DNA of 63,280 bases, counting the filler, from Folioceros fuciformis (taxonomy: Eukaryota): assembly GCA_049999805.1 (NCBI GenBank). It is 8 parts of 8 records of this genome, joined end to end, with 100 filler letters (N's around TTAATTAATTAA, not from the genome) between each part and the next. Parts side by side here need not be neighbours in the genome. Positions count along the whole stretch, not along the records: positions 26,734 to 44,054 come from JBNGIO010003599.1; 7 more parts are not named here. The stretch is one strand, 5' to 3'. This document shows, piece after piece, positions 14,708 through 51,108 of this stretch. Positions within the stretch are counted from its first letter, which is position 1, and each line of letters begins with the position of its first letter. The position numbers and the translations under genes are program-made. The notes beneath the pieces were generated by a model that saw nothing but the letters and a program-made list of their open reading frames with translations, had not been told where the DNA came from and did no database searches.

Positions 14708-15973
14708 ATGGAGGCAAGGCGGCCGGTGTGTCTGGTCACAGGAGGTCGGGGCTTCTTAGCGCGCCACCTCGTATCCCAGCTCATCGGAGCCGGGACATGG
14801 AGCGTGAGGATTGCGGATTTGGGTGAGGCCATCGTGCTCTCCCGGGAAGAGCTCGGCGGGCCGCTCGACCAGGCGCTCCGGAACGGGCTGGCTCACTACA
14901 CTTCCGTGGATGTCCGAAACCGAGCCCAGGTGTTCCAGGCTTGCAAGGGTGTGCTCGCGGTATTCCACACGGCGGCCCCGAGCTCCTGCATCGATGACCG
15001 GGTCCTGCACTTCGACGTGACGGTGGTGGGCACCCAGAACGTGATCGACGCCTGCCAGGCGTGCGGGGTGAAGACGCTCGTGTACACCAGCTCCCCCAGC
15101 GTGGTGATGGACGCGCACGGGCGCACCCCCCTGGTGAACGCGGACGAGAGCGTCCCCTTGGCCAAGGAATTCCAGGACGTGTACGCGGAGGCCAAGGCGC
15201 AGGCAGAATCCTCGGTGCTGAGGGCAAACGGACGCGCCGGACTCCTCACGTGCGCCCTGCGGCCATTTGGGATTTTCGGGCCAGGCGACCAGCTCGCCCT
15301 ACCATCCCTGGTGGCGGGAGCCCGGTCGTGGAAGATGAAGTTCGTTCTGGGAGACGGCGAAAACCTCTTCGACTGGACGTACGTGGAGAACGTAGCCCAC
15401 GCTCATGTCTGCGCCGAGAGGGCGTTGTCCGCCGGCCAGGCGGGCGGGAAGGTGTATTTTATCACGGATGCTCGGCCGCAGAGATTCTGGGACTTCGTGG
15501 GAGACTTCCTGTCCGCAATGGGCTACGCGAGGCCCAGGTACAGGCTCCCCATGAAGCTGCTAATTCCCCTGGCGCATGTTGCAGCCTGGCTGGGCCGGCG
15601 GATGGGGATGAGCGTGGGGCACTTCAAACCCTCCAGGTTGAGATTGGTGTCGGGGACATGGACCTTCAACATCTCCCGGGCCAGGCGCGAGCTGGGGTAC
15701 AAGCCCGTGGTGGATCTGGATGAAGCCATGCGCAGGACCGTGGAGAGCTTCTCCCATATCAGGGCCACGAGTTCTGCAGCAACGCTGCCACCTGCTTCTC
15801 CTTCTCTTCACGCACAGGCTCTGCTTGCGCACTGGGATGCCTTGGCAACCCGAGTGACTACAGCATTACGATTCGTCATCACCCTCATCACCCACTTGTG
15901 GAGTCTACTTGTTTTGCTCTGCATTGGCCATGCCCACGGTTATTCAGTTGGACCTGACGTGCATCGTTTGTAG
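14708..15973 (+). CDS. 3-beta-hydroxysteroid dehydrogenase/C4-decarboxylase-like (ERG26/NSDHL family), intronless
   Basis: Rossmann motif VTGGRGFLARHL, VYTSSPSVV, catalytic YAEAK (YxxxK), TCALRP.GIFGPGD, FDWTYVENVAHAH, and a hydrophobic C-terminal tail; single open frame. Confidence 0.92.
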   Translation: MEARRPVCLVTGGRGFLARHLVSQLIGAGTWSVRIADLGEAIVLSREELGGPLDQALRNGLAHYTSVDVRNRAQVFQACKGVLAVFHTAAPSSCIDDRVLHFDVTVVGTQNVIDACQACGVKTLVYTSSPSVVMDAHGRTPLVNADESVPLAKEFQDVYAEAKAQAESSVLRANGRAGLLTCALRPFGIFGPGDQLALPSLVAGARSWKMKFVLGDGENLFDWTYVENVAHAHVCAERALSAGQAGGKVYFITDARPQRFWDFVGDFLSAMGYARPRYRLPMKLLIPLAHVAAWLGRRMGMSVGHFKPSRLRLVSGTWTFNISRARRELGYKPVVDLDEAMRRTVESFSHIRATSSAATLPPASPSLHAQALLAHWDALATRVTTALRFVITLITHLWSLLVLLCIGHAHGYSVGPDVHRL

Positions 15974-16758: not shown

Positions 16759-16858
16759 NNNNNNNNNNNNNNNNNNNNNNNNNNNNNNNNNNNNNNNNNN
16801 NNTTAATTAATTAANNNNNNNNNNNNNNNNNNNNNNNNNNNNNNNNNNNNNNNNNNNN
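16759..16858. other. Artificial scaffold linker
   Basis: 44N-TTAATTAATTAA-44N. Confidence 0.97.
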
Positions 16859-26633: not shown

Positions 26634-26733
26634 NNNNNNNNNNNNNNNNNNNNNNNNNNNNNNNNNNNNNNNNNNNNTTAATTAATTAANNNNNNNNNNN
26701 NNNNNNNNNNNNNNNNNNNNNNNNNNNNNNNNN
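26634..26733. other. Artificial scaffold linker
   Basis: 44N-TTAATTAATTAA-44N. Confidence 0.97.
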
Positions 26734-26734
26734 G

Positions 26735-29044
26735 GGTTGCGAGGTACAGGAATACGCGTTGAGCATCGAGCAGGTCGAGGAGACCGAATTTGGATCTGTC
26801 GAGGATTTGGAAGGACACAATTCTGCGTTTGCGGAGGAGGAGAACACGTTCAGCCAAGACAATCACGTGGTCATCGGGTCCAACGGCAGGAAAGATGGGT
26901 ACAGCGTCAAGAGATACGACTCGGATTTACAGTTCGCACACCGGATGCAACCACACCACAAGGAGCGACAGGTCTACAGTGGGTGGCAGATTGCCGTGCT
27001 GGCATTCCAGACGCTGGGAGTGGTGTATGGAGACATCGGGACGTCGCCCTTGTACGTGTACGCGTCCACGAAGCTGGAGAACCCGGGAAAGGATGATTTT
27101 CTGGGAGCGATGTGTATCATGTTCTGGACTCTGACGATGATCCCGTTGATCAAGTACGTGTTCATTGTGCTCCGGGCTGATGATCATGGGGAAGGAGGGT
27201 CGTTTGCCATCTACTCCAAGTTGTGCCAGGCAGTGAAGATCGGGCAGACTGCAGGAAGGCAGTACACGCCACTGGACTCTGATGTCCATCTGACGTACCA
27301 TAGTGATGCTGTGGGCACTTCAGGATCTGTCCATGCCAAGGCCCGGAATTTCATCGAGAAGAGCAAGGTGGCGCAGAAGGGGTTATTGGGTCTGGTTTGT
27401 CTGGGCACCAGCATGATTCTGGGCGATGGTGTTTTGACGCCGGCTATTTCTGTGATCTCGTCTGTGGAGGGGCTGAAGGAGCTGAATGTGCCTCATCTCT
27501 GGATTGTGGTGACTGCTGCTGTCATCTTGCTGCTGCTGTTCATGCTGCAGAGATTCGGGACTTCCAGGGTTGCTGTCCTGTTTTCCCCGATTATGATGGT
27601 ATGGTTTTTGTGCAATCCGGTCATTGGAATTTACAACATCTGCAAGTTCTATCCTTCGGTGTTCCGGGCAGTCTGGCCTGGGTATGGTGTTATGTTCTTT
27701 AAGAGAAATGGGCTGAACGGATGGAAGGTCCTGTCTGGGCTGGTTCTTGTGATCACAGGCTCCGAGGCCATGTTCTGGGATCTGGGGCACTTCAACCAGA
27801 AGGCCATCAAGCTTGGGTTCACCTGCCTGGTGTACCCTTCCTTGGTCCTCACCTACTGTGGACAGACGGCTTTCTTGATCAAGCATCCTGGTAGCATTGG
27901 CAATGCCTTCTACGATTCCATCCCTAAGCCTGTCTACTGGCCGGTGTTCGGCCTGGCAACACTTGCAGCAGTGGTGGCCAGCCAGGCTCTTATCTCGGCC
28001 ACATACTGTGTGTTCAAGCAAGCCATAGCTTTGGGCTGCCTTCCCAGAATGGAGATCAGGCATACATCGGAGAAGGAGGAGGGGCAGATCTACTGTCCAG
28101 CAGCAAACTACATGCTCATGCTCCTCTGCCTGGCAATGGTTTGCGGTTTCCAGAGCAGTGAGAAGATCGCAAACGCGTATGGAGTTGCTGTGCTGTTTGA
28201 TCTTCTCATCACCACTTCCCTTGTGTCTATTGTCATGCTCTTGGTGTGGAACACGCCCTGGCCTTTGATTGTGGCCTTCTTCTTCACATTCAGCAGCATC
28301 GAACTTACCTACCTGTCATCAGTGATGGTGAAGTTCGCACATGGAGGATGGGTGCCTTTCGGGATTGCAGCAGCATTCCTGGGAGTCATGACTGTCTGGA
28401 TTTACGGGCGTGGGGAGAAGCATGCCTATGAAGTGCAGCACAGGATCAGTGCTGAGAGCCTGCGGGGTCTCCTGACCGGACCTTCTGGCATCACCAGAGT
28501 TCCAGGCATCTGCTTCTTCTACAGCGAGCTGCAGGGGGGGCCGCCTCCTGTCTTCACTCACTATGTGCAGAATGTGCGCAGCTTGCACCGGATCTTAGTC
28601 TTCACCACCATCAGATTCATCCCTGTCAAGAGCGTCATCCCCAGCGAAAGGTACCTTGTCGGCAAGGTGGGATATGGGCCTGGAGTGTACCGGTGCGTGG
28701 CCCGATACGGATACAAAGACCTGGTGGATGTTGCAGAGAAGGGATTCATGTTGCAGGTCATCGAATGCCTGCAGAATTACCTGGAAACCCACGAAATCGA
28801 CACTGATGGTTCCTCGGCAGGAGACGAGCTCCATGAGTTACAAACGGCAGCTAACAGTGGAGCCATCTACGTGAAGGGAATTTCCAGGTTGGAGGTTCCC
28901 GAATCCAGTTGCTGCGGATGGTTCAAGAGAATTTTGATAAACAAGCTCTATTACCTTCTGCAACACAACTGTAGGTCTGGTATTGAGGACTTGCGAGTCC
29001 CACATGCCAATCTTGTCGAAGTCCGTATGGTCTACGACTGGTAA
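26735..29044 (+). CDS. HAK: HAK/KUP/KT K+ (possibly Na+) transporter, cluster-IV-like, intronless over the visible part, 5'-truncated
   Basis: GVVYGDIGTSPLY, ADDHGEGGSFAIYS, GDGVLTPAISVISSVEG, QRFGT, EAMF.DLGHF, EGQIYCP, GGWVP and RVPGICFFYS motifs; the frame is open from the scaffold edge to TAA at 29044. Confidence 0.96.
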   Translation, partial: GCEVQEYALSIEQVEETEFGSVEDLEGHNSAFAEEENTFSQDNHVVIGSNGRKDGYSVKRYDSDLQFAHRMQPHHKERQVYSGWQIAVLAFQTLGVVYGDIGTSPLYVYASTKLENPGKDDFLGAMCIMFWTLTMIPLIKYVFIVLRADDHGEGGSFAIYSKLCQAVKIGQTAGRQYTPLDSDVHLTYHSDAVGTSGSVHAKARNFIEKSKVAQKGLLGLVCLGTSMILGDGVLTPAISVISSVEGLKELNVPHLWIVVTAAVILLLLFMLQRFGTSRVAVLFSPIMMVWFLCNPVIGIYNICKFYPSVFRAVWPGYGVMFFKRNGLNGWKVLSGLVLVITGSEAMFWDLGHFNQKAIKLGFTCLVYPSLVLTYCGQTAFLIKHPGSIGNAFYDSIPKPVYWPVFGLATLAAVVASQALISATYCVFKQAIALGCLPRMEIRHTSEKEEGQIYCPAANYMLMLLCLAMVCGFQSSEKIANAYGVAVLFDLLITTSLVSIVMLLVWNTPWPLIVAFFFTFSSIELTYLSSVMVKFAHGGWVPFGIAAAFLGVMTVWIYGRGEKHAYEVQHRISAESLRGLLTGPSGITRVPGICFFYSELQGGPPPVFTHYVQNVRSLHRILVFTTIRFIPVKSVIPSERYLVGKVGYGPGVYRCVARYGYKDLVDVAEKGFMLQVIECLQNYLETHEIDTDGSSAGDELHELQTAANSGAIYVKGISRLEVPESSCCGWFKRILINKLYYLLQHNCRSGIEDLRVPHANLVEVRMVYDW

Positions 29045-29472
29045 AATCTATCGCAGGTCAGCCCGAAATCTGAAGTATGGCGGGTTGGAAGACAGGATCT
29101 CCCCTTCACCTTGAGGATTGTCCATGTTCAAGGATATCCTCCTGTAACGTAGAATCAGGTCCGAGAGCTGGTTAGTTTTCTAGCAGTTTGCTACCATTAG
29201 CGTAGCAGCAAGTGACACTTGGCGTGTCCAGCTTTGTCTGGCCTGCCACTGCATGTATGCCACTTTGCTTCTCATGTTTTGCGGTTTCGGGGTGAGCCAA
29301 TCGAAGTGAACTTTGATCTCTCGCTTGAATTCTGAAGAGCTGCTTGTGCAGCTGCAGAATTCCATGTGCTACATTGTTAGACTTCGTAACCGGCAGGAGG
29401 TTGTGGACGGGTTTCAAGGGAGTGCTTGTGATCTAGAACTGGTTGTGAATCGAGATCCAACTTGGGGTGTCC

Positions 29473-30429
29473 ATGGCTTCTGTCATCCGACTGGTGGCTC
29501 CAGCTTCGGCTCTCTGTGTTGCTTCCTCTACGCACGGTTCCCCTCATTGGAAAGCAGAGCAGCAAAGAGCGAAGATCAGGTCAGAATGCCAGCGAACGGG
29601 GTTGTCCAAGAAGCATGCGCACGTCTCCACTTCTCAGGTATGGACCAAAGTGATGATGCTGAAGAGCACAGAATCCGTTTGTGGGTCATGTCACGGGTGC
29701 CATTCTTTCAGGGAATGGTTCATTATTGTCAGCACAATGCACGGCGTCTCTGATTTCCTTGTAGTGAACTTGACTTCTATGCTACGAAGTCGCAAGGTTG
29801 TCGACAACATTCTTCTTGACAGTGAGTTTCATCTACAGGATAAACGCCAGGGATGTTCAGATGCCGAAGGTTTTGCCTTGTCAAGACGAGGTGCTGTAGG
29901 GGCTCTCCTCCTCGGCCTTGTTACCCTCTCAGGCAGAGAAGCACACGCTGATGTAAGACGCGATTCTCTATGTTGCCCTCTATGTTGTGAACCAATTCGG
30001 CATCTTGCCTCAATTCGGCATTCTTGGTCACCATGGCAGGAAGGACGATCCAAGGAAGCCGAACAGGCTGCCCAGGTGCAGGAGGACTCGGGCAGAGTAG
30101 CAGAACGCCGGGCTGCTCAGAATGACATCCAGAAGGATGTTGTATGGAGTGCGAAAATCCCTCAAATCTCAACGAAATCCAAAGAGGCAAAACAAGCAGC
30201 CCAGGTGCAGGAAGACTCTGCTAAGGTTGCTGAGCGGAGAAAGCAGTCCTCGTCCAAGCCGGCAGAAACGCTCACCCAAGAGCCCGTTTTCTTCCAACAG
30301 TATCCAGTAGGACAGAAATCGAAAGAGGCTTTGCAGTCCGACCGGGTGAAGCAGGATTCAGGCAAACTTGCAGACAGACGAGAGAAGAGGAAGGAAGCAA
30401 TTTCCAAGCCTGTTGCAATTGGAATGTAG
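29473..30429 (+). CDS. Predicted chloroplast thylakoid-lumen protein (Tat signal) with three internal repeats. Exons 29473-29637, 29839-29952, 30040-30429 (222 aa spliced)
   Basis: Ser/Ala/Arg-rich transit-like N-terminus (MASVIRLVAPASA...), then SRRGAVGALLLGLVTLSGREAHA|D (twin-Arg, hydrophobic core, AxA). The mature part has three SKEAxQxxxVxxDSxxxAxRR repeats. Phase-0 GT-AG introns. Confidence 0.75.
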   Translation: MASVIRLVAPASALCVASSTHGSPHWKAEQQRAKIRSECQRTGLSKKHAHVSTSQVWTKVMMLKSTESVCGSCHGCHSFREWFIIVSTMHGVSDFLVVNLTSMLRSRKVVDNILLDSEFHLQDKRQGCSDAEGFALSRRGAVGALLLGLVTLSGREAHADVRRDSLCCPLCCEPIRHLASIRHSWSPWQEGRSKEAEQAAQVQEDSGRVAERRAAQNDIQKDVVWSAKIPQISTKSKEAKQAAQVQEDSAKVAERRKQSSSKPAETLTQEPVFFQQYPVGQKSKEALQSDRVKQDSGKLADRREKRKEAISKPVAIGM

Positions 30430-31052
30430 AATCTAATGAGCGGGAAGTCTCAGGCTGATCAACTGAAGCCTGGACTTCACTGATTGAGTCAGAGAAAAGG
30501 AGAATAGCTCGAGCCTCGACTGTTTAGCATGTCTACGTTAAAACGCTCACGCGCGATTCCACGTTAAAGCATCAGCTGGATACACTGTAGCTGGACAGCA
30601 AGTTACCGTGCTTCTCACACTTCCGAATTGGATTAGTGCAATTTGGTGATTACAGTCTTTCTTCGACGTCATACATGTCATCCCTGAGCTCGCTCCCAGG
30701 TTTTGCCGGATTGAAAAAGACAAGGAACTGCCTGCACTGTGGAAGGCAGGCAGCCCGCCACCCCATACAACATGACCACAAAACGCCAGGAAGGCATGGA
30801 GATCTGTGAAAAAGACAATACAGACTACAGTGGAGGAAGTAGGTGGGGGGAAGGGCAGAACCCGTGACCCCCGGCGCGGACCTTGTCTACTCCAGATGGG
30901 AACACGGGTGTGGAATCGGTCAAAGAATGAGGTCTGAACCGTGGAGGATCAGAGAATAGATAGTGGCGGAAAGAATGAATTTTACAGAAAGAAAACAGGG
31001 AAGATGGGAACTTTCCGAATGACGACAAATTTCTGTTCAGTTGGTCTCAAGG

Positions 31053-33204
31053 TCAGTCCATAGAGAAGGTGATAGTTCCCACTTGATCGTGAGTGGGCAA
31101 GAAGGGCGTGAGACCAACCTCCTGCAGGATCTTGTCCACGGAGACAAACCTAGGAGTTTCTTCGGCCTCCCTCACCTGCTGCAGCAGCTTGGTTACAGTC
31201 CTCATCTCGGGCCTGGCACTGGGTTGCTGCTTTGTGCAGATGACGCCCAGTTTGAGCATCAGGATTATCCCTGCCAAGTGATCCTTGCAGTAGTCGCTGC
31301 TCTGCAGCAGCTGAGGGTCGATGATGCACTGCATCAAGGTGGCAGGAGATGCAAGGCCTCGTTCGACCCACTCTGATATTGTCACGCCCTCCCCGAAACA
31401 GGAACTGGTGGGTCTCTGCCTGGTGAGGAGCTCCAGCATGAGGATTCCGAAGCTGTAGACATCCTCCTTGGGAGAAGTCTTGAGAGAGTACGCCTTTTCT
31501 GAGGACATCAAACAAAACAAGCAGGGCCTTATCACACTGCACAATATCATCCCAATGCTCAGGAAGTAACACGATTGATGCCTTTCCCTCCTTCTTCTTC
31601 TTCAAAAGATGAATAATGGTGGAACATTGTATGTCAAGATAGCCAGCTACCTGGAGCAGTATAGCCGATGGTGCCGAGATGGGCATCTGATCCGAACTGT
31701 GTGTCCAGGTAGGAGGGGTTCACCAACTTGGCCATCCCGAAATCCGAAATGTGAGGCTCGAAATCAGCGTCGAGCAGGATGTTGCTGGGTTTCAGATCGC
31801 CGTGCACCAAGGAATGAGGGCATTCATGGTGCAGGTACTGCAAACCCAGAGCCACGCCCAGGGCAATCCTGTACCGTCTTTCCCAGCTTAGCCTGCACTC
31901 GAAAGTGGTGCCAAGCGAGCCCTCCAGGTCTGGCCCATAAAGCTGCTGCTCCAGGCTTCCATGCGGCATGTACTCCAGGATCAGCAGCTTCATCTTCACA
32001 TGAGCAACACATCCCAGAATCCTCACCAGGTTCCGGTGCCTGCTCCTCAAGAACGTCTCAAGCTCCCTCCTGAACGTCTGCTCCAAAGTCTTCTGCGACA
32101 GAGTCTGCTGCCCCACGCTGAGCAGCTTGATGGCCACAACTGTCCCATCCCCCAGAATCCCCTTGTANNNNNNNNNNNNNNNNNNNNNNNNNNNNNNNNN
32201 NNNNNNNNNNNNNNNNNNNNNNNNNNNNNNNNNNNNNNNNNNNNNNNNNNNNNNNNNNNNNNNNNNNACACTGTACTGCATCCCCCGCTACCGAGGATGT
32301 GGGCTTCGCTGAAATTGGCCGTGGCTGTCAGGAGATGGTGCACTTTCAGAGGCTTGAGCTTCTTCAGCTTCCTGGACAGAATCCTGACGGGCTCCGCCTT
32401 TAGAGACCCCGCACTCCTGACCCTGCTCAGCTTCCACAGAGCTAGCTTCACCCCCAGAGACACTAGAACCAGGCAGGTGAAGGCCCCGATCACGATCAGC
32501 GATTCTACCAGCTTCGAACCCGAGCTGTCGACAAGGCTCATTCCAATGCAGAAGTTCGGGATCGTGAGATTCTCGTTGCCCGAAAACGCACTGCAGGCGA
32601 ATCTTGGATTCCCGGAGCTGAGCAGGAGAGTCTCAGGAATGGAACCCGAAAGCTGGTTGGAGGAGAGATTAAGTTCCGTGAGCAGAGGAAGCAGCCCGAG
32701 CTCCTCCGGGACAGGCCCTACCAACACGTTCGCCTCCAAGTCCAGAACTCTCAGCTGCAGGCAGCTGCGGAAGCTGGGTATGGACTGGGAGAAGCTGTTG
32801 TGGGCGAGATTCAGAAAAGTCAAATTGGGCAGGTTCTCGCAAATCCGGTCCGGAATACCTCCAGTGAACCCGTTCCCGACCAGATTCAAACCCGACAGAG
32901 CGGAACAGCCCTGTAAAACGAGCCTCCCGCTCAACCCCGCCCAGCTCAAATTCAACCCCGTCACACGATCCTGATCGCAGAGAACCCCTCTCCACGCACA
33001 AACATCCATCGTGGTATTCCCGTCCTCCTCCCAATTCGCCAGCTGAAACTTACCATCCAACGAATCCTTGAACCGTCCCAGGCAAGCCCGATCCTCCTCA
33101 GAGCTCTGGCAGAGGACAGCAACCGGACCCAAGAAACACGCAGCAGCAAACAAGCCCACCGCAATCGCCCAATTAACGTCTGCCCAACACCGTGGGTGAG
33201 GCAT
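31053..33204 (-). CDS. LRR receptor-like kinase 1 (5-LRR BIR-like ectodomain, non-RD FLS2/LRR-XII-like kinase). Exon 1 33204-31651 (spans N gap 32168-32267), exon 2 31498-31053
   Basis: Signal peptide, LRRNT Cys pair, 5 LRRs, TM, GSGGCSTVYKG, VAIK, HGDLKPSNILL, DFG, GTIGYTAP|E with a phase-1 intron, DVYSFG. Confidence 0.93.
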
Positions 33205-34877
33205 GCTGTTCCTCCACCCCCGGCCGCCCAAGCTCCAATCAATCAAATCTCATATCCAGCAATCAATCCTCTCCCAATCTCCGCTCCCGAATTCGCTGGC
33301 CGTAGTCCCAAATCTACCGCCCAACGAATTCTGCTGACTCCCGAGAAGCGAATCGCTCCATCATTGTCCTCCCAACCAATTGCCATCCATGCCAGGCCCA
33401 GGAGGAGGAATCTGTCTTGTCTTGTCTCGTCTGTCCGCCTCTCCCTGTCACAAGCAGCCTGGAGCGGACAGACAGACAAACAAGCAGAAGCAGCTGCAAC
33501 CACAAAGAGACGGAAAGCAGGAGAGAGAAAGGACTAGGTGGGTAGCCGCAGTGCCTGTGAAGCGTCTTGTTCCCAAGGCAGCTGCCTCCTAAAGACAAGA
33601 CACAAAACCGTGCAGAATGAATTCCTGCATCCAACAGGCGCACGGATCCTGTATCACCTGCCAGGCCAGTGCATGGCTTGTTTCCGTCCATGACGCCGAC
33701 GTCTGTTTCCTCGTTCTGTTCCGTCTAAAACAGACGGCGGCAACAGGGATCATCAGTTGCAGTGGAGGTCGAGAGGTACAGGCCGTTAACCAGCTGCCTC
33801 CATCCTCATCACTGACATGCAACATGCAACGCTCCCCCGCTAATTAATCCTGCAGCGTTAAGTACAATTATGGTTCGGTCTGGCCCAATGTCCATCGTAC
33901 CCGAGGCTGTTCCCGGGTGGTGAAGCCCGCTCATCATGGGGAGTGCGAGGATCGCTGCAGCCCGCTACGAATCGCGAGTCGGACGATCTGGGAGGCCCAA
34001 TTAATGACATGTTTATCATAAACCTAGAGGGGGAAATTCGAACCGGGTTCTTGCTTCTTGCGGAAACGCCGGCTATGGTGGGGTTGCAGCAGATCTCGTA
34101 GATATGCCTTCAATTAAGGATCCGAGGCAGGGCCCCCCCCTTGATTGTGCCTGCCGCTGCGCTGCTGCATATAAAAAAAGCAGGAGTGGAGCACTGGATC
34201 AAACGTGTGTCAGGAAGTCAGGTTCAAAACACTTTTCATCTCCCTCGGTTCGCTGCCTCCGGATGCTGTTGGTGAACATTCATTCATAAACAGTATTCAG
34301 GCGGTCACCAGACAGTTCCTGAAACTTCCTCTGTAGACGTGGATAGGTCTTAAGTCAGCCAGAGGAGTAGCTCGACAAAAACTGGCGTTGGAGACGTGTG
34401 GCGACCGTCTTGGGCCCTTGCCTGCTTCTCACCACCATCCTCCTCAGCGCATTAGAATATTGGAATATAGGAACGGCATTCGGACGTGGGTATGGCGACT
34501 TCATATGCGTCATGCCTGCATACATGATTCTTAACAAGATCAGAAGTTGTGTCCTTCGACCCCAAATCGAGAGGGTGTTGGAAACCGGGGATGGGATTAA
34601 AACTTACTTGTGTTCTACGAGTCTTTGCTATGTTACTCTACCAGCATTTGTCCTTGTCCACACTTCACATTTGACTATCAACAACCAGCTACACTTTGCT
34701 AAATATGTGGTAAGTCCTGGGACAAGTTTGATTGTCTGTTCATCACACCTACTTGCAACAAACTAAGTCCTAGTCTTTTCCTTGCAGGAAGCACCTCATT
34801 ACCTTCTCATAGCCCCTTCTAACAACGAGTGACATAGAAGTGCACCCCGAAGATGTCTAATCGCACGAGTATAGGAT

Positions 34878-37120
34878 AAACCTAAACTAATCAAAGTCAT
34901 TTTATGAACTAATTAGTCTTGATCTAGTGAAGCTTGCACCCAAGATCATGAACAAGATCTTGTTGCGACACAACATCTACAATCCAACAGCTCTCTCCAG
35001 CTTGCACCCAAGATCTTGTTGTGATGCAATACACAACATCTACAACCCAAGAGCTCTCTCCATTACACAAGCTTCAAACAGCCCACCATTCTCCAAAGCA
35101 AAAACTATGCATGCTTAGTAATATGAAGGAATGATTCTCCAACCCACAAACTATGCATGCTTAGAAATATGATTTCTTCACAATCGCTTGCAAATGCTTT
35201 CTTCCCAATCACTTGCAAATGCTTTCTTCCATGAATCTCAAATCTTAGGAGATGACATCGCAATTACAATGAACATGCTTAAGACCAAGGAATACATTCT
35301 AAACCTCACCACAACCATATTGAGAAGAAGGCATATGTCAAAGTCTAAGGAATCCATCCTTAACCTCTCCATGTATGGTTATGTGGAGAAGAAAATTACT
35401 TGTCAAAGTCCAAGGAATTCATCCTAAACCTTATCAGTGGATTGGAGAAGAAGTCATATGTCAAAGTCCAAGGAATCATTTGCCTTTATAAGGAGGCATG
35501 CTATCATATTCAAATCTTGCCAATACATTTCATTCAAAACAACAAAGGACACGTCCTTGTCTCAAAACCCAAGCTTATCACTAACTTGGTCTTCAAGAGA
35601 AGATTCTGCAATGAGGTCCATTTACAACAAAGCTAGTATCTATCAAAGTGTGGGTATAGAAATAAGAGTCATTTACATGGTGGCCATGTGGATGATTGTC
35701 TTCTGCATTATAGGTACTTCTACATGGCCTACGCATTTTAATGGTACACAAGACGCATTGGAGCATACCAAGGATGTTACATGAACAAGAACTTGTCATT
35801 GAAGCAAGCAAGCTTGCAACCTTAGAGATTTTGGAACTAGCGCCCATGCAAATGTCATGGTTTTCAGTTTATGGGAAAAGCTTGTTTCAATAGGTCTTGT
35901 CCAAACAAGGTGTCCAAGGTTGAACAATGTAGGTTCATTTCCCCAATACCCTCTAGTAAGCACAATAATGTAGTACCTCACATGTGTCTCGTTTTAGGAT
36001 TCTTAGATGTGGTAACCCTAGCATAATTTGTATCTATCCATAACCTATAATCAACAATTTTGTTTCTTTTTAAGTATTTTTACAGTGAAATAAATTGAGA
36101 ACTCCTAAACAAAACGTGTAGGTGAATAATAATTTTTTTCTTTGATTTTACACAAAAAAAGCATAGTTCGCTCGTCAAACATTATCATTAGTATCATTAG
36201 TAGCATTCTTTCACTTTCTTGTATGAATCTTAAATCTTAGTAAAATATGAGAAAATTGCAGTCATGATAAATATGCTTCAGTCTAAAGAACCCTAGACCT
36301 CACCATAGTCATATGAAGAAGAGTTTGAAGTACATACCAAAGTCAAAGATTTCATCCTAAACTGAAGAAGAAATCATATGTCATAGTCCGAGAAATTCAT
36401 TCAAATGCTGACCAATACACTAGAAGAAGTCATATGTGAAAGGCCAAGGAATTCATTCTAAACCTTACCAGTGGATTGGAGACTAAGTAATATGTCAAAG
36501 GCCAAGGAATTCATCCCACACCTTACCATTGGAGAAAACTTATGTGTCAAAGTCCAAGGAATCACACACCTTCTAAGAAGGCATGCCATCCTATTCAAAT
36601 CTTGCAAATACATTTTTGTCAACAAAACAAAGGACTCTACCCTTGTTCTAAAAACTAAGCTTACCACCAACTTGGTCTTAAAGAGAAGATTCTACAATTG
36701 GGTCACTTTGGAGCAAAGCTAGCATCTATCAAAGTGCAAGCATAGACATAAGAGTGCTTTACATTTTTGCTATGTTGATGATCATAGTGCGCATCATAGG
36801 TGCTTGCTTATGGGATTTTCATGGTACCCAAGAAGCATTGGAGCACTCCAAGAATGATACATGAGAGCTTGCAAGTGGAGCGAGCAAGCTTACAATCCTA
36901 TAGATGTAAGAAATAGAGGCTATGACATATGCAAGAAAGCTTACAATCCTAGAGATGTTAGAAATAGAACCCATGTAAATGTCATAACTTATAATTTATG
37001 GAAAAAGTTTGCTTGAGGTCTTGGCCAAATGAGTTGTCCAAGGTCCGACCCTACAATGGGGTTCATGGCAAAGCTTGCTCAAAAACATGGTGTTTGTGTT
37101 TGAACATATCTTGTCCAAGT
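34878..37120 (-). mobile_element. Copies B and C (tandem) of the same unclassified dispersed repeat, lying between the two RLK genes
   Basis: 35230-35960 and 36220-37120 are colinear with 25180-26270; 34878-34968 matches 26308-26402 (aaacctaa..ctagtgaagc..caagatc..gatcttgttgcg). Confidence 0.7.
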
Positions 37121-37783
37121 TCCCTCCGTAATGGAAGAAAAGAAAAACCCTAACATGTTTTCATCCTGGACAATAATACAATACCTCACAAGACTCTCAC
37201 AAGACTCTAATAGTATTCTTCTAATTGGACTGTTTTTTTAACTTTCCTACTTACGAGTCCCCAACTTTCCCATAGAACTTCAGTCTCTACGACTCAACTG
37301 GAGTCGGGGGTCGCGTCCAAGTTCCTCACCTCTCAGGTCCTTGTGGAGTTCACAATTTCTGGATGTGCCCGTGCCTTAGCTCGGCCCTGAATGTGGACAG
37401 CAAGCAAATGACTGGCACCTCGGGTTTCTTCTAAAGCCCTTCACCTCGAAGTTGTCCTGCAAAACAGTGGAGGAAAATCATCGGGCAATACGCTCAACCG
37501 TAACTGCGGTCACGGTCGACAATGTGATGCTGTGAAATATGATCACTTCTTCCATCCTTGGGCCGGCATGGATGACAGGATTCGAGGAGGTACAAATCTG
37601 ACTTTCCAGGAGAGCGATAGTCTGTAGATTTGTAGATCTGCGAACTTCAGGTAGGGGTCTACATACATTTACAGTTTGAAAGCATATCCACAAAGGGAAG
37701 TCTTTCCTACGGCGAATAGTATCCTAGTTTCCAGGAGATAAAGATTGAGGGCTCCTGGTGGAACAGCGTACGGAGACGAGTTC

Positions 37784-39849
37784 TCAACCTTCCAGCACTT
37801 CAACGATCTCCTCCACAGCAGCCACTTTGGAGGAGATCTTATCCCTGTTCTTCCCGCGTTGTTGCAGCATGCGAACCACGGCTTTCATGTCCGGTCTTGC
37901 GGATGGGGCTTCTTGGGAACATGACAAGCCTAGTCTGCACACCATGCTGATTTCCCGCAGTTGAGCATCGGTAAAGTTCCCGCTGCGAGCTAGGGTTGGA
38001 TCCAGGATCCTGAGCAAATTCTGCTTGACTAGAGCATCGTTCACCCACTGGGACATGGTGACTCCATCCCCGAACAAGGAGCTCGTAGGCCTCTGTCTGG
38101 TAATGAGCTCAAGGAGAAGGATGCCGAAGCTGTACACATCTGCCTTCGGAGAGCTAGTCATGGAGAAGACGTTCTCTGCAGACCCCACATGCGAACACAA
38201 AGTCAAGTCTTAACGTCCAACAAAAAACGCAGAAATGTGCAACAAATGGCGTCGAGGAGTGCATTACCTGGCGCAGTGTAGCCTATGGTCCAGTAAGAGG
38301 CGTTGGACCCAGCACACTCTGACACCAGCTTTGCTACGCCCAAGGGGGAAACATGCGCAACCAAGTCGGCGTCAAGCAGAATGTTGCTGGGGTTAAGGTC
38401 AGAGTGCACCAAAGGTCTCGGACTCTCTTGATGCAGATACTTCAATCCCATAGCCACTCCCAGAGCAATGCCGTATCTTTCATCCCAACTGAGCTGGCAA
38501 TCATTCACCTGCAAAGCTGGACTGCCATACAGGAGCATTTCAAGGCTTCCCTGTGGCATGTAGTCCAGGATGAGCAACATCATGTCCACCTTTGCAACAT
38601 ATCCAAGCGTTCTAACCAGATTCGGGTGGCGGAAATGGCCGACAGCTTCTACAGCCTTCGAGAAGCGTGGCAAGATCATTTCCGGGTCACCCTTGTTCTC
38701 CAAGTTGAGCCACTTGATAGCTACCACCTTCCCATCTGGCAGCTCTGCCTTGTACACCTTACTGAAAGGCCCATATCCGATCTCAAGCTCTTTGCTTAAG
38801 TAGGCTGTTGCAGTCCAGAGGTCCTCGACTATCAATCCTCGACGACTGCCCAGCCTCTTAGACAGAATCCTGACCGGCTCTGTTCCCCTGTTTTCCATAG
38901 GGGGCACTGCTGTAAACGGTATAAGCTTCGCTGACTCTGATCCGCTCAACTTCGCAGGCTTCCCTGGGCCTCGCTTCCACAGTACCATGCACACAAGAAC
39001 CGCTACCGAGAACAACACCAGAGCGCTGGCAACAAGGGCAGCCACCAGCCATATCCTAAACGACTTCCTTCTATTCTCACAGGCTATGCGAGAAAACGAC
39101 TTGCAAAAAGCAGATGGAACAGTAAGACCTGCATTCCCGATGAAGGAGTCCTCGGGAAAGGACCTCGGTGTGCCATCAAGGAACTGCGAACGATTGAGCA
39201 GAGTGGCCGGAATGATCCCCTCAAGTCTGTTGTAGGAAACATTCAAACTACCCAGCCTTGGAAGCTGCCCGAGTTCTGGAGGGATGGTGCCCACCAACTG
39301 ATTACTGTCCAAAGCCAGCGAGTTCAGATACTGGCACATCACAATGTCAGCCGGTATCTCCCCCCGGATGTTGTTGCGGGACAAGTCGAGAGACACAAGG
39401 TTAGGGAATGCCGTAGCCAAGTCATCAGGAATAGAGCCCGAAAACGAGTTGCCGGAGAGCTTGATGGTGGAGAGACCGTCACAAGCTTTCAGAAGATCAA
39501 GCCGGAGCTCCCCTTCAAGCCCGAGCTCTGACAGATCTAGCTGGGAGACATCGCTGGCGCTGGGGTGTCGACATTGGACCCCAGTCCAATTGCAGACAAC
39601 CGGTGATTCAGACAGAGGCGCCAAATTTTTTTGCGGGTCCGTAATGGATGCCTTGAATTCCTTGAGACATGCTTGGGAGCTCACACCCAGCACGCAGCCC
39701 AATAGAATAAGCGCCTGCAGTCCGGCCACCAGGCAGGCAGCTCGCCACCCTTTGCCCATCCCGTTCAACCAGCACATCGCCCTCAAACCTACAAAGTTCA
39801 GGAAAAAAGGAGAAGCCATGGTCAAGGCGCAACGCGAGAAGCACACCAT
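37784..39849 (-). CDS. LRR receptor-like pseudokinase 2, paralog of RLK1. Exon 1 (ATG 39849 or 39759)-38268, exon 2 38175-37784
   Basis: Same 5-LRR ectodomain, the same EPVRILS juxtamembrane motif and the same APE intron. Catalytic motifs are degenerate: HSDLNPSN, and DFG replaced by PLG. Confidence 0.92.
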
Positions 39850-40529
39850 CGCACAGTCCACGACTCCATATCCTTGCACTGTGGATGCAATCAAAATGGT
39901 TAAGGCCCGAGACACGAGTCAGTGTAAGTCAGAGCAACCAGAGTGAAGCGCATTGACTCAGTGTTTTCTAAAAGGTACATGTTTTCTCACAGGTTGAGCC
40001 AAGAGATCCAAATTTTAGACTTGGCCTATTCTAATTTTTATGTCGTTGTCGGGATCGAATCCAGGTCCCCCCAATCCATACTCTACGTAAAACTCAACAC
40101 AGTAACACAACCACACTGCTGTATTTTAATTTTATTTTAATCCTTTTTTAAGTCCCAAGTCTATGTCATTATGCTTGTTGCAAGCTCCTATCCGACATGT
40201 TTCTGCCACGCTTCTATCCCACATGCTTCCACATGGTCCACATCATTTCACTGCAGCTCTTCATACTTCTGCCTGGAGAGGGCATAAAGCATTGTTGCAA
40301 AAAGCTGAGGGATGTTTTAAAAATGGAGACAAACCCATATGCAATACAATCTCAACATGACTATGTACATGGGCTGCATGTACTAGTTTGATGTCATGGT
40401 TTGTGTTACGGGTCTAGAAAATGTTATAACAAGAGCTCAACTTCTATGTTTGCTTATGCATCCCACCCTTATTAGAGTATGGTACTATACTTTGCTCTTG
40501 GGGTTGCTAATTTTTCATAATCTTGATTT

Positions 40530-40900
40530 CATGCAGAGCCAACATTTTTTGCACTAGGGGGAATAGGTTTGTGTTCTTGATATGGTTGTTATGGATTTCA
40601 CTAAGGATTTGATTTGCGAGCACGTCCTCATCGACCTCCCTTAACGGGTGACGGAGGGTTGTGCAAGCACCAAAGTCCATAAGTATTCACCCTTGCAAGA
40701 CAGACATATTTTCATTCCCCTTGCTCTTGAGACTTATGGGGCTATGGGCAAAGACTTTTCAAGGTTCATCAAAGAGTGTGCCACAATTTATCAGAGTCAT
40801 AAGAATGGTGTTCTCCCTCTTTCCTTTGTGGTGGCCTTCTTTCAACAACTCGTATCCATTGCTTTGTAAAGAGCACTGGCCCATGCGGTTTTTAGAACAG
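40530..40900 (+). mobile_element. Remnant of the restriction-like endonuclease C-terminus of a CRE/NeSL-type non-LTR retrotransposon
   Basis: VLDMVVMD...KVHKY...FIPLALETYGAMG...VSIAL*RA matches the K..KY...F.P.A.ET.G...SIALQR pattern; there is an in-frame stop. Confidence 0.65.
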
Positions 40901-41279
40901 CAACAAGCGCAGGTCAAGCGTCTTCTTCAACACCAGTGGTAGGTAGGGCTTTTGTTATTTGAAGGAGCTAGTACCCCTTTTTGGCCTTTGGCCCTACTCA
41001 GGTTTTCCTCCAATCTTTGGAGTAGATGGGACTTTCCATCTTTTTTTCGTTAATAGAAAATATATTATTTCATGCAACCTATCTAATAACCTTGGTACAT
41101 ACATGAGATTTTTTTGTATTTCTTTGCCATGTCTTCTATATTTTTAATGCTTCCACGTAAACTTCACCCGTGTTGCGTTTAACACCCTATATGTGAGACA
41201 TGATTCTATACAGGCATACTAAATATTCTACGCCATACATCCATCTCCCATATTCCTTCGATATAGATATTAGCAAGTA

Positions 41280-43075
41280 TTTATTTATTTATCATTAGGC
41301 GTATGTAGCCGTGAGGCTATGACGCCGGAACGTGAATCAAAAACATGATTGAATGGACACTTTGGGAAAGCGCAAAAGAAAGAGGATTAGAGCAAACAAA
41401 ATAGCAAATCTAGATAGCTATGTCAATAAGCCTAAGTTAAGTAATTGCCAATCGCCTTGAAGTAAGAGAGAAGTTTTTCCCTGAGTTTGGGAACACTAAG
41501 AAGTTGGCGGATATCGTAGTAAAAGCCTTGAAACACCTGGATCCAAGTGTTGCGAGTGGCCATACACTAGCCAAGAATGTGGTGACGAGTTTCTTCTAAA
41601 GACCTGCATTTCCGACAAAATGGATCCTCTGCAATGTTGAATCTCCTAAAGTAAGCCCCAATAGCCATATGCCCAGTCTGAAGCTAGGTGAGAAATGACG
41701 AGAGCTTACGGTCATGGAGACCAAGGCGTTGTAGCACCAAGGCTGAAGGGCCACCAAGCACCACCCTCTTAAGCGCAGAAGCCTTAGTTGAGGAAACCCA
41801 TCGTAAACGCCACTCCTGTAGAATTGCAGCATGAATTTGCTAGTGAGCTTTGGACACTGATAGGATCCGGTCTTCGCGGGAAATGGGAAGAAGAGTGGTA
41901 GCCTTAGCGATAACATCTGCATGCTCAATACCAACTATATTATGATGGCTCGGAATCCAGTGGAGATTAAGGGAAACCTCCAGATGAGCTACCGAAAAGG
42001 CATGGAGAGATGTCCTACCTTGGAGAGATATGGCTTGTGCTGGGCGAGCCAAAGTGTCCGTTAAAGATATGATAGCTGCTTGATTATCAAGGAAAATTGT
42101 AACTGACGAAATCCTGGGGATGGAAGTAAAGAGGGTGGGCAGGCATGAAATTGCTTTGACCACAGAGAGGAGTTCTGCCTCATAAACCCCGTAGTATGTT
42201 TCTAAACCAAAAGATAATTGATGGACAATATCCCCTTTGAAGTAGAAAACAGCCGCGCCCTCGGCATGACCATCCAAAAGAGAACCATCAGTGTAAATGG
42301 CAAGGGCATCAGGAGTCAAAAGATGTAGGGAATGTGAGGCAATAGCAGAAGTGGGAGATAGTAAAATTATGATGGTTGTGGGTAAAGAAAGAGGAGAGGC
42401 CCAAGGAGGCACGAATCGAGGAAAAATAGTCTCAATGGCAGTGGAGATGGGCAGGCCTAAAGCGGAGTACAGAGTACTAGGGGAAAGGAGTTTGAGGCGA
42501 CTGCGGATAGCATTGTAGTACCGTTTTTTGTAGTTAGTCGTAGGAAGAAAGACTTGATGGATGGGGTGAGAGGGAGGGTAGGAGATGTTGCGGAGGAGAG
42601 AACGGAGAGAATGGCGTTGGAGGCCTAACTCTGTGGGCAGAAGAAAAGCTTCAAATTCCAGGGCATTAATGGAGGTAGTTCGAAACGCACTAGTAATGGC
42701 CCTACAGGCAAGACGTTGAACCCGTTGGAGGTGTTGAATGTGTGTACGACCTCCGTTGAACCAGACATTGTAGCCGTAATCGAGCTTGGGCAGGACAACA
42801 CTAATGTATAATTGTCGAAGAAGCTTGGCATTGAGGCCCCAAACTGAATTCCCAAGAGAGATTATAGCTGACAAAGTACGCATTGCGGAAGCCGTAACCT
42901 GATGAACATGCGTGTTCCAAGTTAACTTGGAATCCAAATAGAAGCCCAAAAACCTATCACACTCGGAGGGAGTGATAAGGGAACCATCGGGTAACGAAAG
43001 AGTACAATCCTTTGTTGATTTCTTACGCTTCAGGGAAAAATGAATAAGTTCAAACTTGTTAGAATCGAACTCCAC
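41280..43075 (-). mobile_element. 5'-truncated LINE (Tad1/I-group-like): RT C-terminus, RNase H and Zn-knuckle remnant
   Basis: KFELIHFS...RFLGFYLDSKLTWNTH...RQLY.SVVLPKLDYG...LQRVQR...AFRTT; RNase H IYTDGS/EAEL/DNQAAI/WIPSH/EHADVIAK; a CxC..ETRHH..G remnant near 41570-41620; an A-rich TAA-like tail near 41280-41297. Confidence 0.88.
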
Positions 43076-44054
43076 GAGGTGCGTAGAAGGGCAAGGGTTA
43101 GCAAGTAGAAGGGCATAGTAAGTGCACATACCTTGCCATCCCTTGCTCATTCATCCACCTTACAAGTCTAGAGGCTATTTTACATTGTACACACAACTCC
43201 ATTTTCATTTAGAACGCAAACTACCCTCCTTGACTATCTCTCTAAAGATTTGCAAACAATCAATTCATATTGTGCTGAGAGTTAATTGTCGTTAATCGTA
43301 GCGGTCCTGTTCCATTACTCAAATCCAGGCAAGGTCTTTTTCACAATTTCATTTCACACTATACATTAGAAGATTGTGAATCTAGCATGGCTACCCATAG
43401 TTTCTCACGTTATCTCCTTTATCTACTTGTCAACAACTTTGCCTTTGCATTTGTCTCTCTTATTGCCTAACTGTCGCAATTTACAATCATTTAATCTTGA
43501 TTGCCATCAATAACTTCAAAAGAACACAATATTTGATGCAAAGCACTAGAGATTCCTATAAGAAAAAACTATCCCATCGCCTTAGGCCAGAAGTCCCTAG
43601 GTCTTTATCAGCGTCTTCTTCATTTACATCTCTACCAAAAAGCCTTCGGCCACCATGTAGGCGGTGAGGCCTATCCTCTACTACTACCTCTCACGAAACA
43701 GCTCCATCACTACCTCAATGTTCTTTTTCGCGAGGAAGGACCATTAACAATGTTTGTTATAAAAGGGGTTTACCCTAAAACCCTTTGTTGAACGTAGAGT
43801 GTTTTTTCTATGCCAAAGAATCCACACAAAAAATAGCCATTTTAAAGAGCTTAGATTTTTCTTATACAAACATAAATATATTTTATTTTTAAAGTTACTT
43901 AATTTCGAGGTTCTAAGCAACAAGGTCGTTCTTAAGTTTGATTGGAATACAAATGTATTGAATGTTTGTAGAACATGCTTGAAATCCTCATCCATAAAGA
44001 AGTCTATCACTTGTTTATAGTAAGTCCACTCTTGCTCCTCGATAACCATTTGAT

Positions 44055-44154
44055 NNNNNNNNNNNNNNNNNNNNNNNNNNNNNNNNNNNNNNNNNNNNTT
44101 AATTAATTAANNNNNNNNNNNNNNNNNNNNNNNNNNNNNNNNNNNNNNNNNNNN
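44055..44154. other. Artificial scaffold linker
   Basis: 44N-TTAATTAATTAA-44N. Confidence 0.97.
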
Positions 44155-51008: not shown

Positions 51009-51108
51009 NNNNNNNNNNNNNNNNNNNNNNNNNNNNNNNNNNNNNNNNNNNNTTAATTAATTAANNNNNNNNNNNNNNNNNNNNNNNNNNNNNNNNNNNN
51101 NNNNNNNN
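51009..51108. other. Artificial scaffold linker
   Basis: 44N-TTAATTAATTAA-44N. Confidence 0.97.

Follow-up and report, generated by a model that had tools for sequence, protein, structure and literature searches.

A Folioceros fuciformis receptor kinase that probably joined a BIR-derived ectodomain to an LRR-XII-sister kinase by domain exchange

Introduction

BIR1-BIR4 (BAK1-INTERACTING RECEPTOR-LIKE KINASES, LRR-RLK subfamily Xa) are single-pass receptors of about 600-650 aa with a five-LRR ectodomain. According to the accessible part of Yan et al., BIR/Xa homologs span land plants. The accessible text of Hohmann et al. (bioRxiv 10.1101/2020.02.18.954479) states that the BIR3 F146A/R170A double mutant loses SERK binding, and that the BIR3 ectodomain, once fused to the kinase of BRI1, HAESA or ERECTA, binds SERK3 and gives signalling that needs no ligand. 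In these engineered receptors (oBIR3-iBRI1, oBIR3-iHAESA, oBIR3-iERECTA and oBIR3-iSGN3), the BIR ectodomain and transmembrane (TM) helix are fused to a signalling kinase taken from a receptor that depends on SERK. The LRR-XII receptors (FLS2, EFR, XA21, At3g47570-like) carry more than 20 LRRs, and their catalytic loop is non-RD and follows the pattern H-x-DLKPSN(I/V)LLD.

Here we analysed a gene in a 63,280-nucleotide stretch of Folioceros fuciformis DNA (the window, which is the whole stretch, composed of scaffolds joined end to end). The encoded protein matches BIR1-BIR4 in overall length, in its single-pass layout and in its five-LRR ectodomain, which is as long as theirs, while its kinase shares the LRR-XII form of catalytic loop. 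In principle, its architecture is that of the oBIR3 chimeras, from which it differs in being natural, old and conserved across lineages, in carrying a kinase of another clade and in having replaced the two residues on which those chimeras depend. Full-text literature searches, including the accessible parts of PMC12512272, PMC8462819 and PMC5380761, returned no description of this architecture, although the supplements of Yan et al. and Ngou et al. may contain such proteins. The gene thus belongs to a family undescribed in the literature searched.

Results

Gene structure and transcript

The gene lies on the minus strand at 33204..31053 and consists of two exons. Its start codon ATG begins at 33204 and its stop codon occupies 31055-31053; the spliced coding sequence (CDS) of 1899 nt encodes 632 aa and contains one stop, the terminal one. 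Pfam matches were obtained for LRRNT_2 (7.3e-07), LRR_8 (1.6e-09) and Pkinase (1.1e-24). The motifs from which a sequence-only reading had proposed a chimeric receptor, namely EEDRACLGRFKDSL, HGDLKPSNILLD, the intron-split GTIGYTAP/E and ELLTRQRPTS, were all located on the minus strand at the positions given there. A run of 100 N (32168-32267), which that reading did not mention, interrupts STV/YKG and displaces the reading frame by one base.

A contig of 2654 nt from run X2, which carries the organism code of the window and comes from a different study, fuses 32166 straight to 32268 and bridges the N run; it is also without 31499-31650 (GT..AG on the minus strand), a 152-nt intron. Both joints recur in a 2230-nt contig from run X4, which represents a related organism about 93% identical, with the gap joint running from 32164 to 32268. 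As the DNA contigs of runs X1 and X3 retain the intron, the intron-free X2 and X4 contigs were taken as cDNA. Because both contigs bridge the gap and the X2 contig removes the intron, the 100-N run is an assembly artefact and no coding sequence was lost; the gene is real and expressed. The homologue P0126 reads through GSGGCSTVYRARL unbroken. An AlphaFold2 model of the protein had a mean pLDDT of 80 and contained five LRR strands, which begin near residues 80, 105, 130, 153 and 177. The features are as follows.

32268..33204, minus strand: exon 1, first part (aa 1-312 and base 1 of codon 313), with the start codon, predicted signal peptide, ectodomain, TM helix, juxtamembrane segment and start of the Gly-loop; from translation and the unbroken X2 RNA contig
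33109..33204, minus strand: predicted signal peptide, aa 1-32; from a hydrophobic stretch and a model helix at residues 12-22
32974..33099, minus strand: N-terminal cap (LRRNT_2), aa 36-77, with C41, C69 and C76; from the Pfam match above
32608..32973, minus strand: five leucine-rich repeats, aa 78-199, with C100; from Pfam LRR_8, LRR_1 and LRR_4 and the five model strands
Within 32749-32763, minus strand: Q151, equivalent of BIR3 F146; from interface-column alignment
Within 32677-32694, minus strand: L175, equivalent of BIR3 R170; from interface-column alignment
32434..32499, minus strand: TM helix, aa 236-257; from a hydrophobic window and model helix 226-264
32167..32267, no strand: assembly artefact of 100 N and one duplicated base; from the joints of the X2 and X4 RNA contigs
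31651..32166, minus strand: exon 1, second part, kinase subdomains I-VIII; from translation and the Pkinase match
32126-32140, minus strand: VAIK, in the second part of exon 1
31781-31804, minus strand: catalytic loop HGDLKPSN, in the second part of exon 1
31736-31744, minus strand: DFG, in the second part of exon 1
31499..31650, minus strand: intron, 152 nt, GT..AG, phase 1 inside the Glu codon of APE; absent from the X2 and X4 contigs and present in X1 and X3
31053..31498, minus strand: exon 2, which covers kinase subdomains VIII-XI, the C-terminal tail and the stop codon; from translation, the CDS ending in one stop

Kinase

The kinase is non-RD (HGD), with its catalytic loop within HGDLKPSNILLD, and retains the VAIK Lys, the alphaC Glu, the catalytic Asp and Asn, DFG and APE. 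Maximum-likelihood (ML) trees were built from 59 rows hand-picked out of about 190 collected kinase-matching proteins, a selection from which many RLK subfamilies are absent. The 15 BIR rows formed one clade (100/100) placed with LRR-Xb (98/94), while the present kinase grouped with P0126 and WIN2, its tandem paralog (100/99), inside a 12-row family (97/91). This family joined the LRR-XII kinases at 99/96 and 100/99 in two trees, as sister to the core LRR-XII clade and outside it (90/90). A single clade of family and BIR kinases was rejected by the AU test (delta lnL 70.1, p 1.2e-7). In a PDB search, the 172-aa kinase piece scored higher against BRI1, an LRR-Xb kinase, than against FLS2 (107.6 versus 84.6 bits) and the fern relative P0156 was level between them (189 versus 185.5), FLS2 being the sole LRR-XII kinase among those matches and sitting on a long tree branch (1.09). 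The trees show the kinase as a separate clade, apparently sister to the LRR-XII pattern-recognition receptors (FLS2, XA21). Two proteins labelled 'short', P0175 and P0207, grouped with SD lectin kinases and were rejected as family members.

The Gly-loop G.GG.STVYK is common to this gene and the long-LRR proteins P0023, P0159, P0164 and P0167 from fern, lycophyte and conifer. The kinase differs from LRR-XII in having Gly, not Cys, before the catalytic Asp, and its relatives carry HCDLKPSN. Its HGDLKPSN also stands against the HRNIS.. found in 7 of 20 BIR representatives by pattern check and in P0244 and P0245. The intron at the APE position, which the sequence-only reading had taken as a resemblance to LRR-XII, is present and shared by WIN2; judged by read-through, it is also common to P0126 and the LRR-XI-like gene model P0211. 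Because P0211 reads through there, the intron is, on these gene models, not diagnostic of LRR-XII.

Ectodomain

When the ectodomain was searched against 416 collected proteins with phmmer, all 16 proteins at ranks 2-17 were BIR-type (124-86 bits), and the best non-BIR LRR protein reached 78.1 bits. The N-cap C41 is Cys in 15/15 BIRs and in 1/57 decoys (other LRR N-termini); C100, at the LRR1/2 boundary, is Cys in 15/15 BIRs and in none of the 57 decoys. Within the family, C100 is present in 6/6 members and C41 in 5/6, plus P0126 by alignment. Foldseek against the PDB returned BIR3, BIR2, BIR3 and BIR2 chains as the top four (E 2e-14 to 2e-12), with SERK TM-scores of 0.82-0.86, equal to those of BIR. 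The ectodomain tree split the decoys from BIRs and family with support of 100/98; the decoy set is without SERK, SOBIR1 and other five-LRR subfamilies, which were compared through the PDB only. These top matches in sequence and fold among short ectodomains show the ectodomain to be BIR-type, evidently derived from that of subfamily Xa, as the sequence-only reading had held.

Three further searches were of narrower use. Against longer proteins, the ectodomain matched long multi-repeat LRR proteins, with no family signal. The N-cap alone gave 6 matches among 47 candidates, two of them fern-like BIRs. From a search with the BIR P0244, 20 BIR-like proteins were chosen out of 150 listed matches by length and single-stretch coverage, the remainder of those listed being long LRR kinases.

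Relatives and tandem paralog

Among the proteins collected, the family was found in ferns, in the lineage of the window and in gymnosperms. Fern relatives share the combination of BIR-type ectodomain and family kinase: the ectodomains of P0156, P0246, P0247 (Pteridium) and P0248 matched the BIR HMM with 247-266 bits, scores that fall in the range of BIRs, and share 52-64% identity with those of fern BIRs, against 35-38% for the kinases. In the control P0244, kinase and ectodomain were both of BIR type (366.8 bits with the BIR2 kinase and 180.8 bits with the BIR3 ectodomain). The BIR-like similarity in ferns seems to extend to a juxtamembrane FEK.L.K motif.

The gymnosperm members, about 400 aa long, comprise a TM helix and a kinase (P0151 from Cryptomeria, P0153 from Ginkgo, P0157 from Taxus and the P0161 cluster with Pinus taeda); they are nameless or auto-annotated in databases. 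They are 47-49% identical to the kinase piece of the present gene, lie inside the 12-row clade and resemble it in the juxtamembrane segment and Gly-loop. They differ in that the LRR ectodomain is lacking, with just some 20 residues ahead of the TM helix, and in carrying HCD in place of HGD.

WIN2 lies on the same contig at 39819..37784. Its joined CDS of 1944 nt, predicted from genomic sequence, encodes 647 aa with one stop.

38268..39819, minus strand: WIN2 exon 1, BIR-type ectodomain, TM helix and N-terminal kinase part; from Pfam LRRNT_2/LRR/Pkinase and translation
38176..38267, minus strand: WIN2 intron, 92 nt, at the APE position and in the phase seen in the first gene; from GT and AG sites
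37784..38175, minus strand: WIN2 exon 2; from translation

The WIN2 ectodomain scored 179 bits on the canonical-BIR HMM (best decoy 136), and ranks 2-23 of its search were BIR-type in 22/22 cases. Its catalytic loop reads HSDLNPSN, SPLG replaces DFG and the Gly-loop is GYGPFSKV. By these comparisons, the WIN2 ectodomain is more clearly BIR-type than that of its neighbour, and its kinase is degenerate and looks dead.

SERK-binding interface

The position of BIR3 F146 is F/Y in 13/16 BIRs and that of R170 is R in 14/16. The present gene has Q and L there, and the ortholog P0126 has G and S, while Y and R are kept at the two positions in 4/4 fern members and WIN2. Compared with the X4 contig, the gene showed 96 differences in 1131 nt over the ectodomain, TM helix, juxtamembrane segment and 5ʹUTR, and 19 in 514 nt over the kinase; the ectodomain-encoding half is about twice as divergent from the related species as the kinase-encoding part.

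Discussion

The results support discordant histories for the two halves of the gene. Since a BIR-type ectodomain is combined with an LRR-XII-sister kinase, and the AU test (p 1.2e-7) separates that kinase from those of BIRs, the halves appear to have been joined by domain exchange, and the natural chimera suggested by the sequence-only reading is borne out. That reading had expected separate phylogenies to put the ectodomain with BIRs and the kinase inside LRR-XII; the former was found, and the kinase indeed falls with LRR-XII and not BIR/LRR-X, but beside the core clade. We consider it probable that the product of this expressed gene is a type-I receptor kinase, with a BIR-derived ectodomain acquired by domain exchange and since re-purposed.

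The sequence-only reading further proposed ligand-free docking on SERK. A BIR-derived ectodomain and the ligand-free signalling of BIR3-ectodomain fusions in the available text of Hohmann et al. would fit a receptor that still binds SERK without ligand, as a natural oBIR3-type chimera or a guard of SERK-BIR; because Y and R are kept in the fern members and WIN2, such a model is viable for them. Docking is, however, weakened for the present gene, as Q and L stand in place of F146 and R170, the very pair whose replacement abolished SERK binding of BIR3 in that text, and P0126 has likewise lost both. The C-terminal cap motif LCGxPL, usual in fern and BIR proteins, is also missing from the gene. 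We therefore regard ligand-free SERK docking of this ectodomain as unsupported and unlikely.

The direction of the exchange may be asked next. BIRs could instead have taken their ectodomain from the LRR-XII-sister lineage, or gene conversion could have acted repeatedly between BIR and family paralogs. Fern family ectodomains are intermixed with fern BIR ectodomains in one clade (99/99), where Pteridium P0247 pairs with the BIR fragment P0339 (99/96, 64% identity). Repeated conversion or a fern-specific acquisition would fit this pattern; a single ancient fusion followed by independent descent does not, as all family ectodomains in one clade gave delta lnL 34.3 and p 0.023 in an AU test whose group was chosen after the tree was viewed. 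The trees, however, are unrooted for direction. As BIR/Xa homologs occur across land plants, in the part of Yan et al. available, and the family was found in few lineages among the proteins collected, BIR is the likelier donor of the ectodomain, and reversal or repeated conversion seems to us quite improbable.

It could also be argued that only the fern clade is truly chimeric, and that the ectodomain of the present gene and P0126 is a truncated LRR-XII-type one that became BIR-like by convergence. On the canonical-BIR HMM, the gene exceeds the best decoy by a small margin (143.1 versus 136.2 bits) and P0126 reaches 90.8; in the ectodomain tree, the two branch off basally from the BIR-type group, not from within it; the highest-scoring single match to FLS2 (51.5 bits) lands on the final four repeats of that receptor; and the AU result against one family clade points the same way. 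Against this, C41 and C100 are present in all 15 BIRs and nearly missing from the 57 decoys, the reverse search placed BIR-type proteins in 16/16 top ranks, and BIR3 and BIR2 are the closest folds. Moreover, WIN2, with its sister kinase (100/99), same contig and same intron, has a plainly BIR-type ectodomain, which is also the one most identical to that of the gene (41%). Convergence is thus very unlikely. Hardly credible at all is a mis-join of two different receptor genes by the scaffolder, for although the N run sits within the kinase Gly-loop of a window made of joined scaffolds and the X1 and X3 DNA contigs end between 32167 and 32425, it is refuted by single intron-free contigs from two organisms that cross the gap exactly, by a juxtamembrane segment and Gly-loop upstream of the gap that already match this kinase family, and by the same architecture, gap-free, in P0126, P0156 and WIN2.

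On the favoured reading of a BIR-derived, re-purposed ectodomain, the kinase is predicted to be catalytically competent and to signal in LRR-XII fashion, and, being non-RD, it would require an RD partner kinase. Because of the Q/L replacements and an ectodomain divergence about twice that of the kinase, the diverged ectodomain of this gene and P0126 would no longer hold SERK through the BIR interface and may serve a different partner or ligand. The tandem pair may conceivably divide roles, with WIN2 docking and the first gene signalling.

A bolder proposal, which we think rather doubtful, is that non-angiosperm vascular plants possess natural counterparts of the BIR3 chimeras, constitutively seated on SERK by their BIR-type ectodomain, in which any disturbance of SERK-BIR would trigger immune signalling through the non-RD, LRR-XII-like kinase, and that the pair described here would have split this task, with WIN2 as a pseudokinase that docks on SERK and the first gene as the signalling kinase, its ectodomain re-purposed. 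If true, such receptors would be a cell-surface integrity sensor.

As LRR-RLK subfamilies are defined on the kinase domain (Ngou et al., in the text available), a receptor whose BIR ectodomain is attached to a kinase foreign to BIRs escapes the usual BIR surveys. The family offers natural test material for the effect of a BIR ectodomain coupled to a live kinase, for retention versus loss of the SERK-BIR interface (ferns and WIN2 versus the present gene) and for the origin of the ectodomain-less gymnosperm kinases. A conserved natural family of this kind indicates that, in the course of plant evolution, ectodomains have been exchanged between co-receptor regulators and kinases of the immune type, and provides the natural counterpart of a chimera previously built only in the laboratory.

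A receptor kinase gene with both halves on one transcript

The frames of the window gene encode a signal-peptide-like start, an LRR N-cap with five LRRs, one hydrophobic helix and a complete protein kinase (Pfam: LRRNT_2, 7.3e-07; LRR_8, 1.6e-09; Pkinase, 1.1e-24). A run of 100 N interrupts the Gly-loop of the kinase and causes a frameshift. Public contigs were aligned to window 30900-33400. The X2 contig (2654 nt, treated as cDNA), whose organism code is identical to that of the best DNA run and which comes from a different study, joined 32166 to 32268 and 31498 to 31651, and both joints were reproduced in the X4 contig (2230 nt) from a second organism, organism B, at about 93% identity. The DNA contigs of runs X1 and X3 retained the 152-nt intron and broke near the N gap. 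Because both joints are carried by X2 and X4, the N run is a scaffolding artefact plus one duplicated base, and the intron is spliced. The CDS of 1899 nt encodes 632 aa with one stop, and the ectodomain and kinase halves lie on one transcript in two species.

Receptor genes and their features
33204-31053, minus strand: window gene
32168-32267: 100-N run in the window gene
31499-31650 (by contig joints), minus strand: window-gene intron, 152 nt, GT..AG, phase 1 in the Glu of APE, spliced
39819-37784, minus strand: WIN2, tandem paralog of 647 aa, about 4.6 kb upstream of the window gene in a contiguous stretch

Within window 32167-32425, the X1 and X3 contigs, both from the best DNA run's sample, stopped or became loose with unlike ends (21 letters at 32425; 255 letters behind 32394), and the RNA contigs ran uninterrupted. 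Difficult assembly at this spot, or an allelic difference, may be the cause.

The window is divided by seven spacers of 100 bases, each N44-TTAATTAATTAA-N44 with a stop in all six frames; it is therefore made of joined separate scaffolds, and adjacency across spacers is not genomic. Both receptor genes lie inside one piece, 26734-44054. The neighbour genes appear strikingly intron-poor for a land-plant-like gene set.

Surroundings in the window
9578-9677, 16759-16858, 26634-26733, 44055-44154, 51009-51108, 58183-58282, 60057-60156: spacers
8607-9629, plus strand: BES1/BZR1-type factor, long single open frame
14636-15973, plus strand: 3-beta-hydroxysteroid dehydrogenase-like, 445 aa, long single open frame
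26735-29044, plus strand: KUP/HAK potassium transporter, 784 aa, K_trans 2.4e-158, long single open frame
41840-43150, minus strand: RNase H-containing open frame between the receptor pair and the following spacer, probably a retroelement remnant
48745-50790, minus strand: 681-aa open frame without a Pfam match

Relatives in ferns and gymnosperms

Of 3179 candidates in a search with the window kinase piece, 1289 matched at E<=0.001, and the best 120 were listed. Among these were P0126 (646 aa, 60% identical), which has the window-gene architecture and an unbroken GSGGCSTVYRARL, P0156 (624 aa, 47% identical) and, at 43-46% identity, LRR-XII, SD and CRK kinases. In gymnosperms (Cryptomeria, Ginkgo, Taxus, Pinus), proteins about 400 aa long had a TM helix and the same type of kinase without LRRs. 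Four such forms (P0151, P0153, P0157, P0161) have only about 20 extracellular residues beside the TM helix; they are receptor kinases whose ectodomain was lost or never present. One member of the gymnosperm cluster carries the automatic name 'FLS2'.

An N-cap search with P0156 returned 6 matches from 47 candidates. P0246 and P0247 (Pteridium aquilinum), as well as P0248, have a kinase of the P0156 type. P0244 and P0245 have an N-cap 67-72% identical to that of P0156 and a canonical BIR kinase (HRNISASSILLD, FVNGDFGDVGYVAPEY); against PDB, P0244 matched the BIR2 kinase 4l68 at 366.8 bits and the BIR3 ectodomain at 180.8 bits, so both halves are BIR. The whole P0156 ectodomain matched BIR2 (148 bits) and BIR3 (147 bits) in one stretch, and its kinase matched BRI1 (189 bits) and FLS2 (185.5 bits), with the BIR2 kinase absent from its 60 best PDB matches. 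Fern ectodomains were 52-64% identical regardless of the attached kinase, and the two fern kinase types were only 35-38% identical to each other.

The two halves have different ancestries

Twenty BIR-like proteins were chosen from the 150 listed by an exhaustive P0244 search; NCBI names anchored three rows as BIRs, namely At1g27190/BIR3 (Solanum), BIR2 (Cryptomeria) and At5g48380/BIR1 (Hevea). A careful ML tree was built from 59 kinase domains selected by hand, with three partial rows dropped; in it, the BIR kinases formed a single clade (100/100), grouped with LRR-Xb (98/94). The kinases of P0126 and the window gene paired at 100/100, the gymnosperm short forms grouped with the fern members at 99/93, and all of these joined FLS2, XA21, At3g47570-type and fern/lycophyte long-LRR kinases at 99/96. 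In a second tree, with WIN2 added and one long row removed, the family was a 12-row clade (97/91) and grouped with LRR-XII at 100/99. Forcing all kinases that follow BIR-type ectodomains into one clade cost 70.1 lnL units (p-AU 1.2e-7). The separate domain phylogenies proposed in the sequence-only reading gave differing ancestries. The kinase that it likened to FLS2 was grouped with LRR-XII by the trees, but PDB ranked BRI1 (107.6 bits) above FLS2 (84.6 bits) for the window kinase piece, which counts against the LRR-XII placement; we give the tree more weight, although many RLK subfamilies are absent from it. The window-gene kinase keeps all catalytic motifs and is, from its sequence, non-RD like LRR-XII immune receptors. 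Non-RD kinases are reportedly linked to pattern recognition.

The family was seen in ferns, the window's streptophyte lineage and, without ectodomain, gymnosperms; no angiosperm row fell inside its clade among the hand-picked tree rows, the kinase searches being non-exhaustive. Angiosperm five-LRR subgroups are listed as II, Xa, XI-22, XIIIa and XIV, with none in XII (Dufayard et al.). BIR/Xa is assigned to land plants only in a study that works with kinase-domain trees (Yan et al.), and LRR-RLK subgroups are likewise kinase-defined (Ngou et al.). A full-text literature search, with supplements outside its reach, found no description of a BIR-type ectodomain with this kinase.

The ectodomain is of BIR type

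An HMM from 14 canonical BIR ectodomains matched 308 of 416 proteins, scoring BIRs at 146-315 bits and family members from ferns at 247-266. P0126 scored 90.8, and the window gene 143.1, only a small margin above the best other LRR protein (136.2). The reverse search with the window ectodomain separated BIRs from decoys more clearly: ranks 2-17 were all BIR-type (124-86 bits, near-full ectodomain coverage), and the first decoy scored 78.1 bits. C100 and the N-cap C41 were Cys in 15/15 BIRs and in the family (C41 of P0126 being read from A1, the protein alignment); among 57 N-terminal LRR decoys, the C41 column held Cys in one and Ala in 42, and the C100 column held no Cys and Leu in 48. The AlphaFold2 model (mean pLDDT 80, >90 over the LRRs) retrieved BIR3 and BIR2 chains as its four best Foldseek matches, before PRK6 and SERKs, with TM-scores that do not separate BIR from SERK. 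Ectodomain trees split the decoys from family plus BIR at 99/96 and 100/98. The chimera proposed in the sequence-only reading is real, expressed and conserved.

In the same trees, P0126 and the window gene branched first, WIN2 next and the core BIRs after. The window-gene ectodomain is further diverged than those of the fern family members. The latter were intermixed in the trees with fern BIR ectodomains (99/99), P0247 pairing with the BIR fragment P0339 at 99/96. A forced single clade of all family ectodomains cost 34.3 lnL units (AU p 0.023), a result that speaks for conversion involving BIR paralogs or for more than one acquisition of the ectodomain. The juxtamembrane motif V.MFE.HLK of fern family members is shared with BIRs (V.LF.KPLVK), and the window gene is without it (A1, columns about 413-435); given this shared motif, the stretch exchanged or converted in ferns may reach beyond the TM helix.

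The intron of WIN2 matches that of the window gene in position and phase, and the WIN2 kinase is sister to P0126 plus the window gene (100/99). Its ectodomain is clearly BIR-type by similarity, with 179 bits on the BIR HMM and reverse-search ranks 2-23 all BIR-type (top canonical BIR P0278, 132.7 bits; best decoy, 86.6). The kinase is degenerate (HSDLNPSN, SPLG replacing DFG, Gly-loop GYGPFSKV) and looks dead.

The SERK interface

According to Hohmann et al. (bioRxiv 10.1101/2020.02.18.954479), BIR3 F146A/R170A abolished SERK binding and silenced BIR3-ectodomain chimeras. The PDB alignment of a tomato BIR3 ortholog with chain 6fg8_B is in native numbering, where F146 lies within ..ECKFLN.. and R170 within ..RLDRLR...

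Residues in the F146 and R170 columns
BIRs (16): F/Y in 13/16; R in 14/16
Fern family members (4): Y in 4/4; R in 4/4
WIN2: Y; R
Window gene: Q; L
P0126: G; S

Between the window gene and organism B, there were 96/1131 differences in the ectodomain-encoding part (including TM, JM and 5ʹUTR) and 19/514 in the kinase part. The suggested SERK docking is not supported for the window gene: constitutive docking is unlikely, because the BIR-SERK contact residues are gone. In WIN2 and the fern proteins, which keep Y and R, such docking is plausible.
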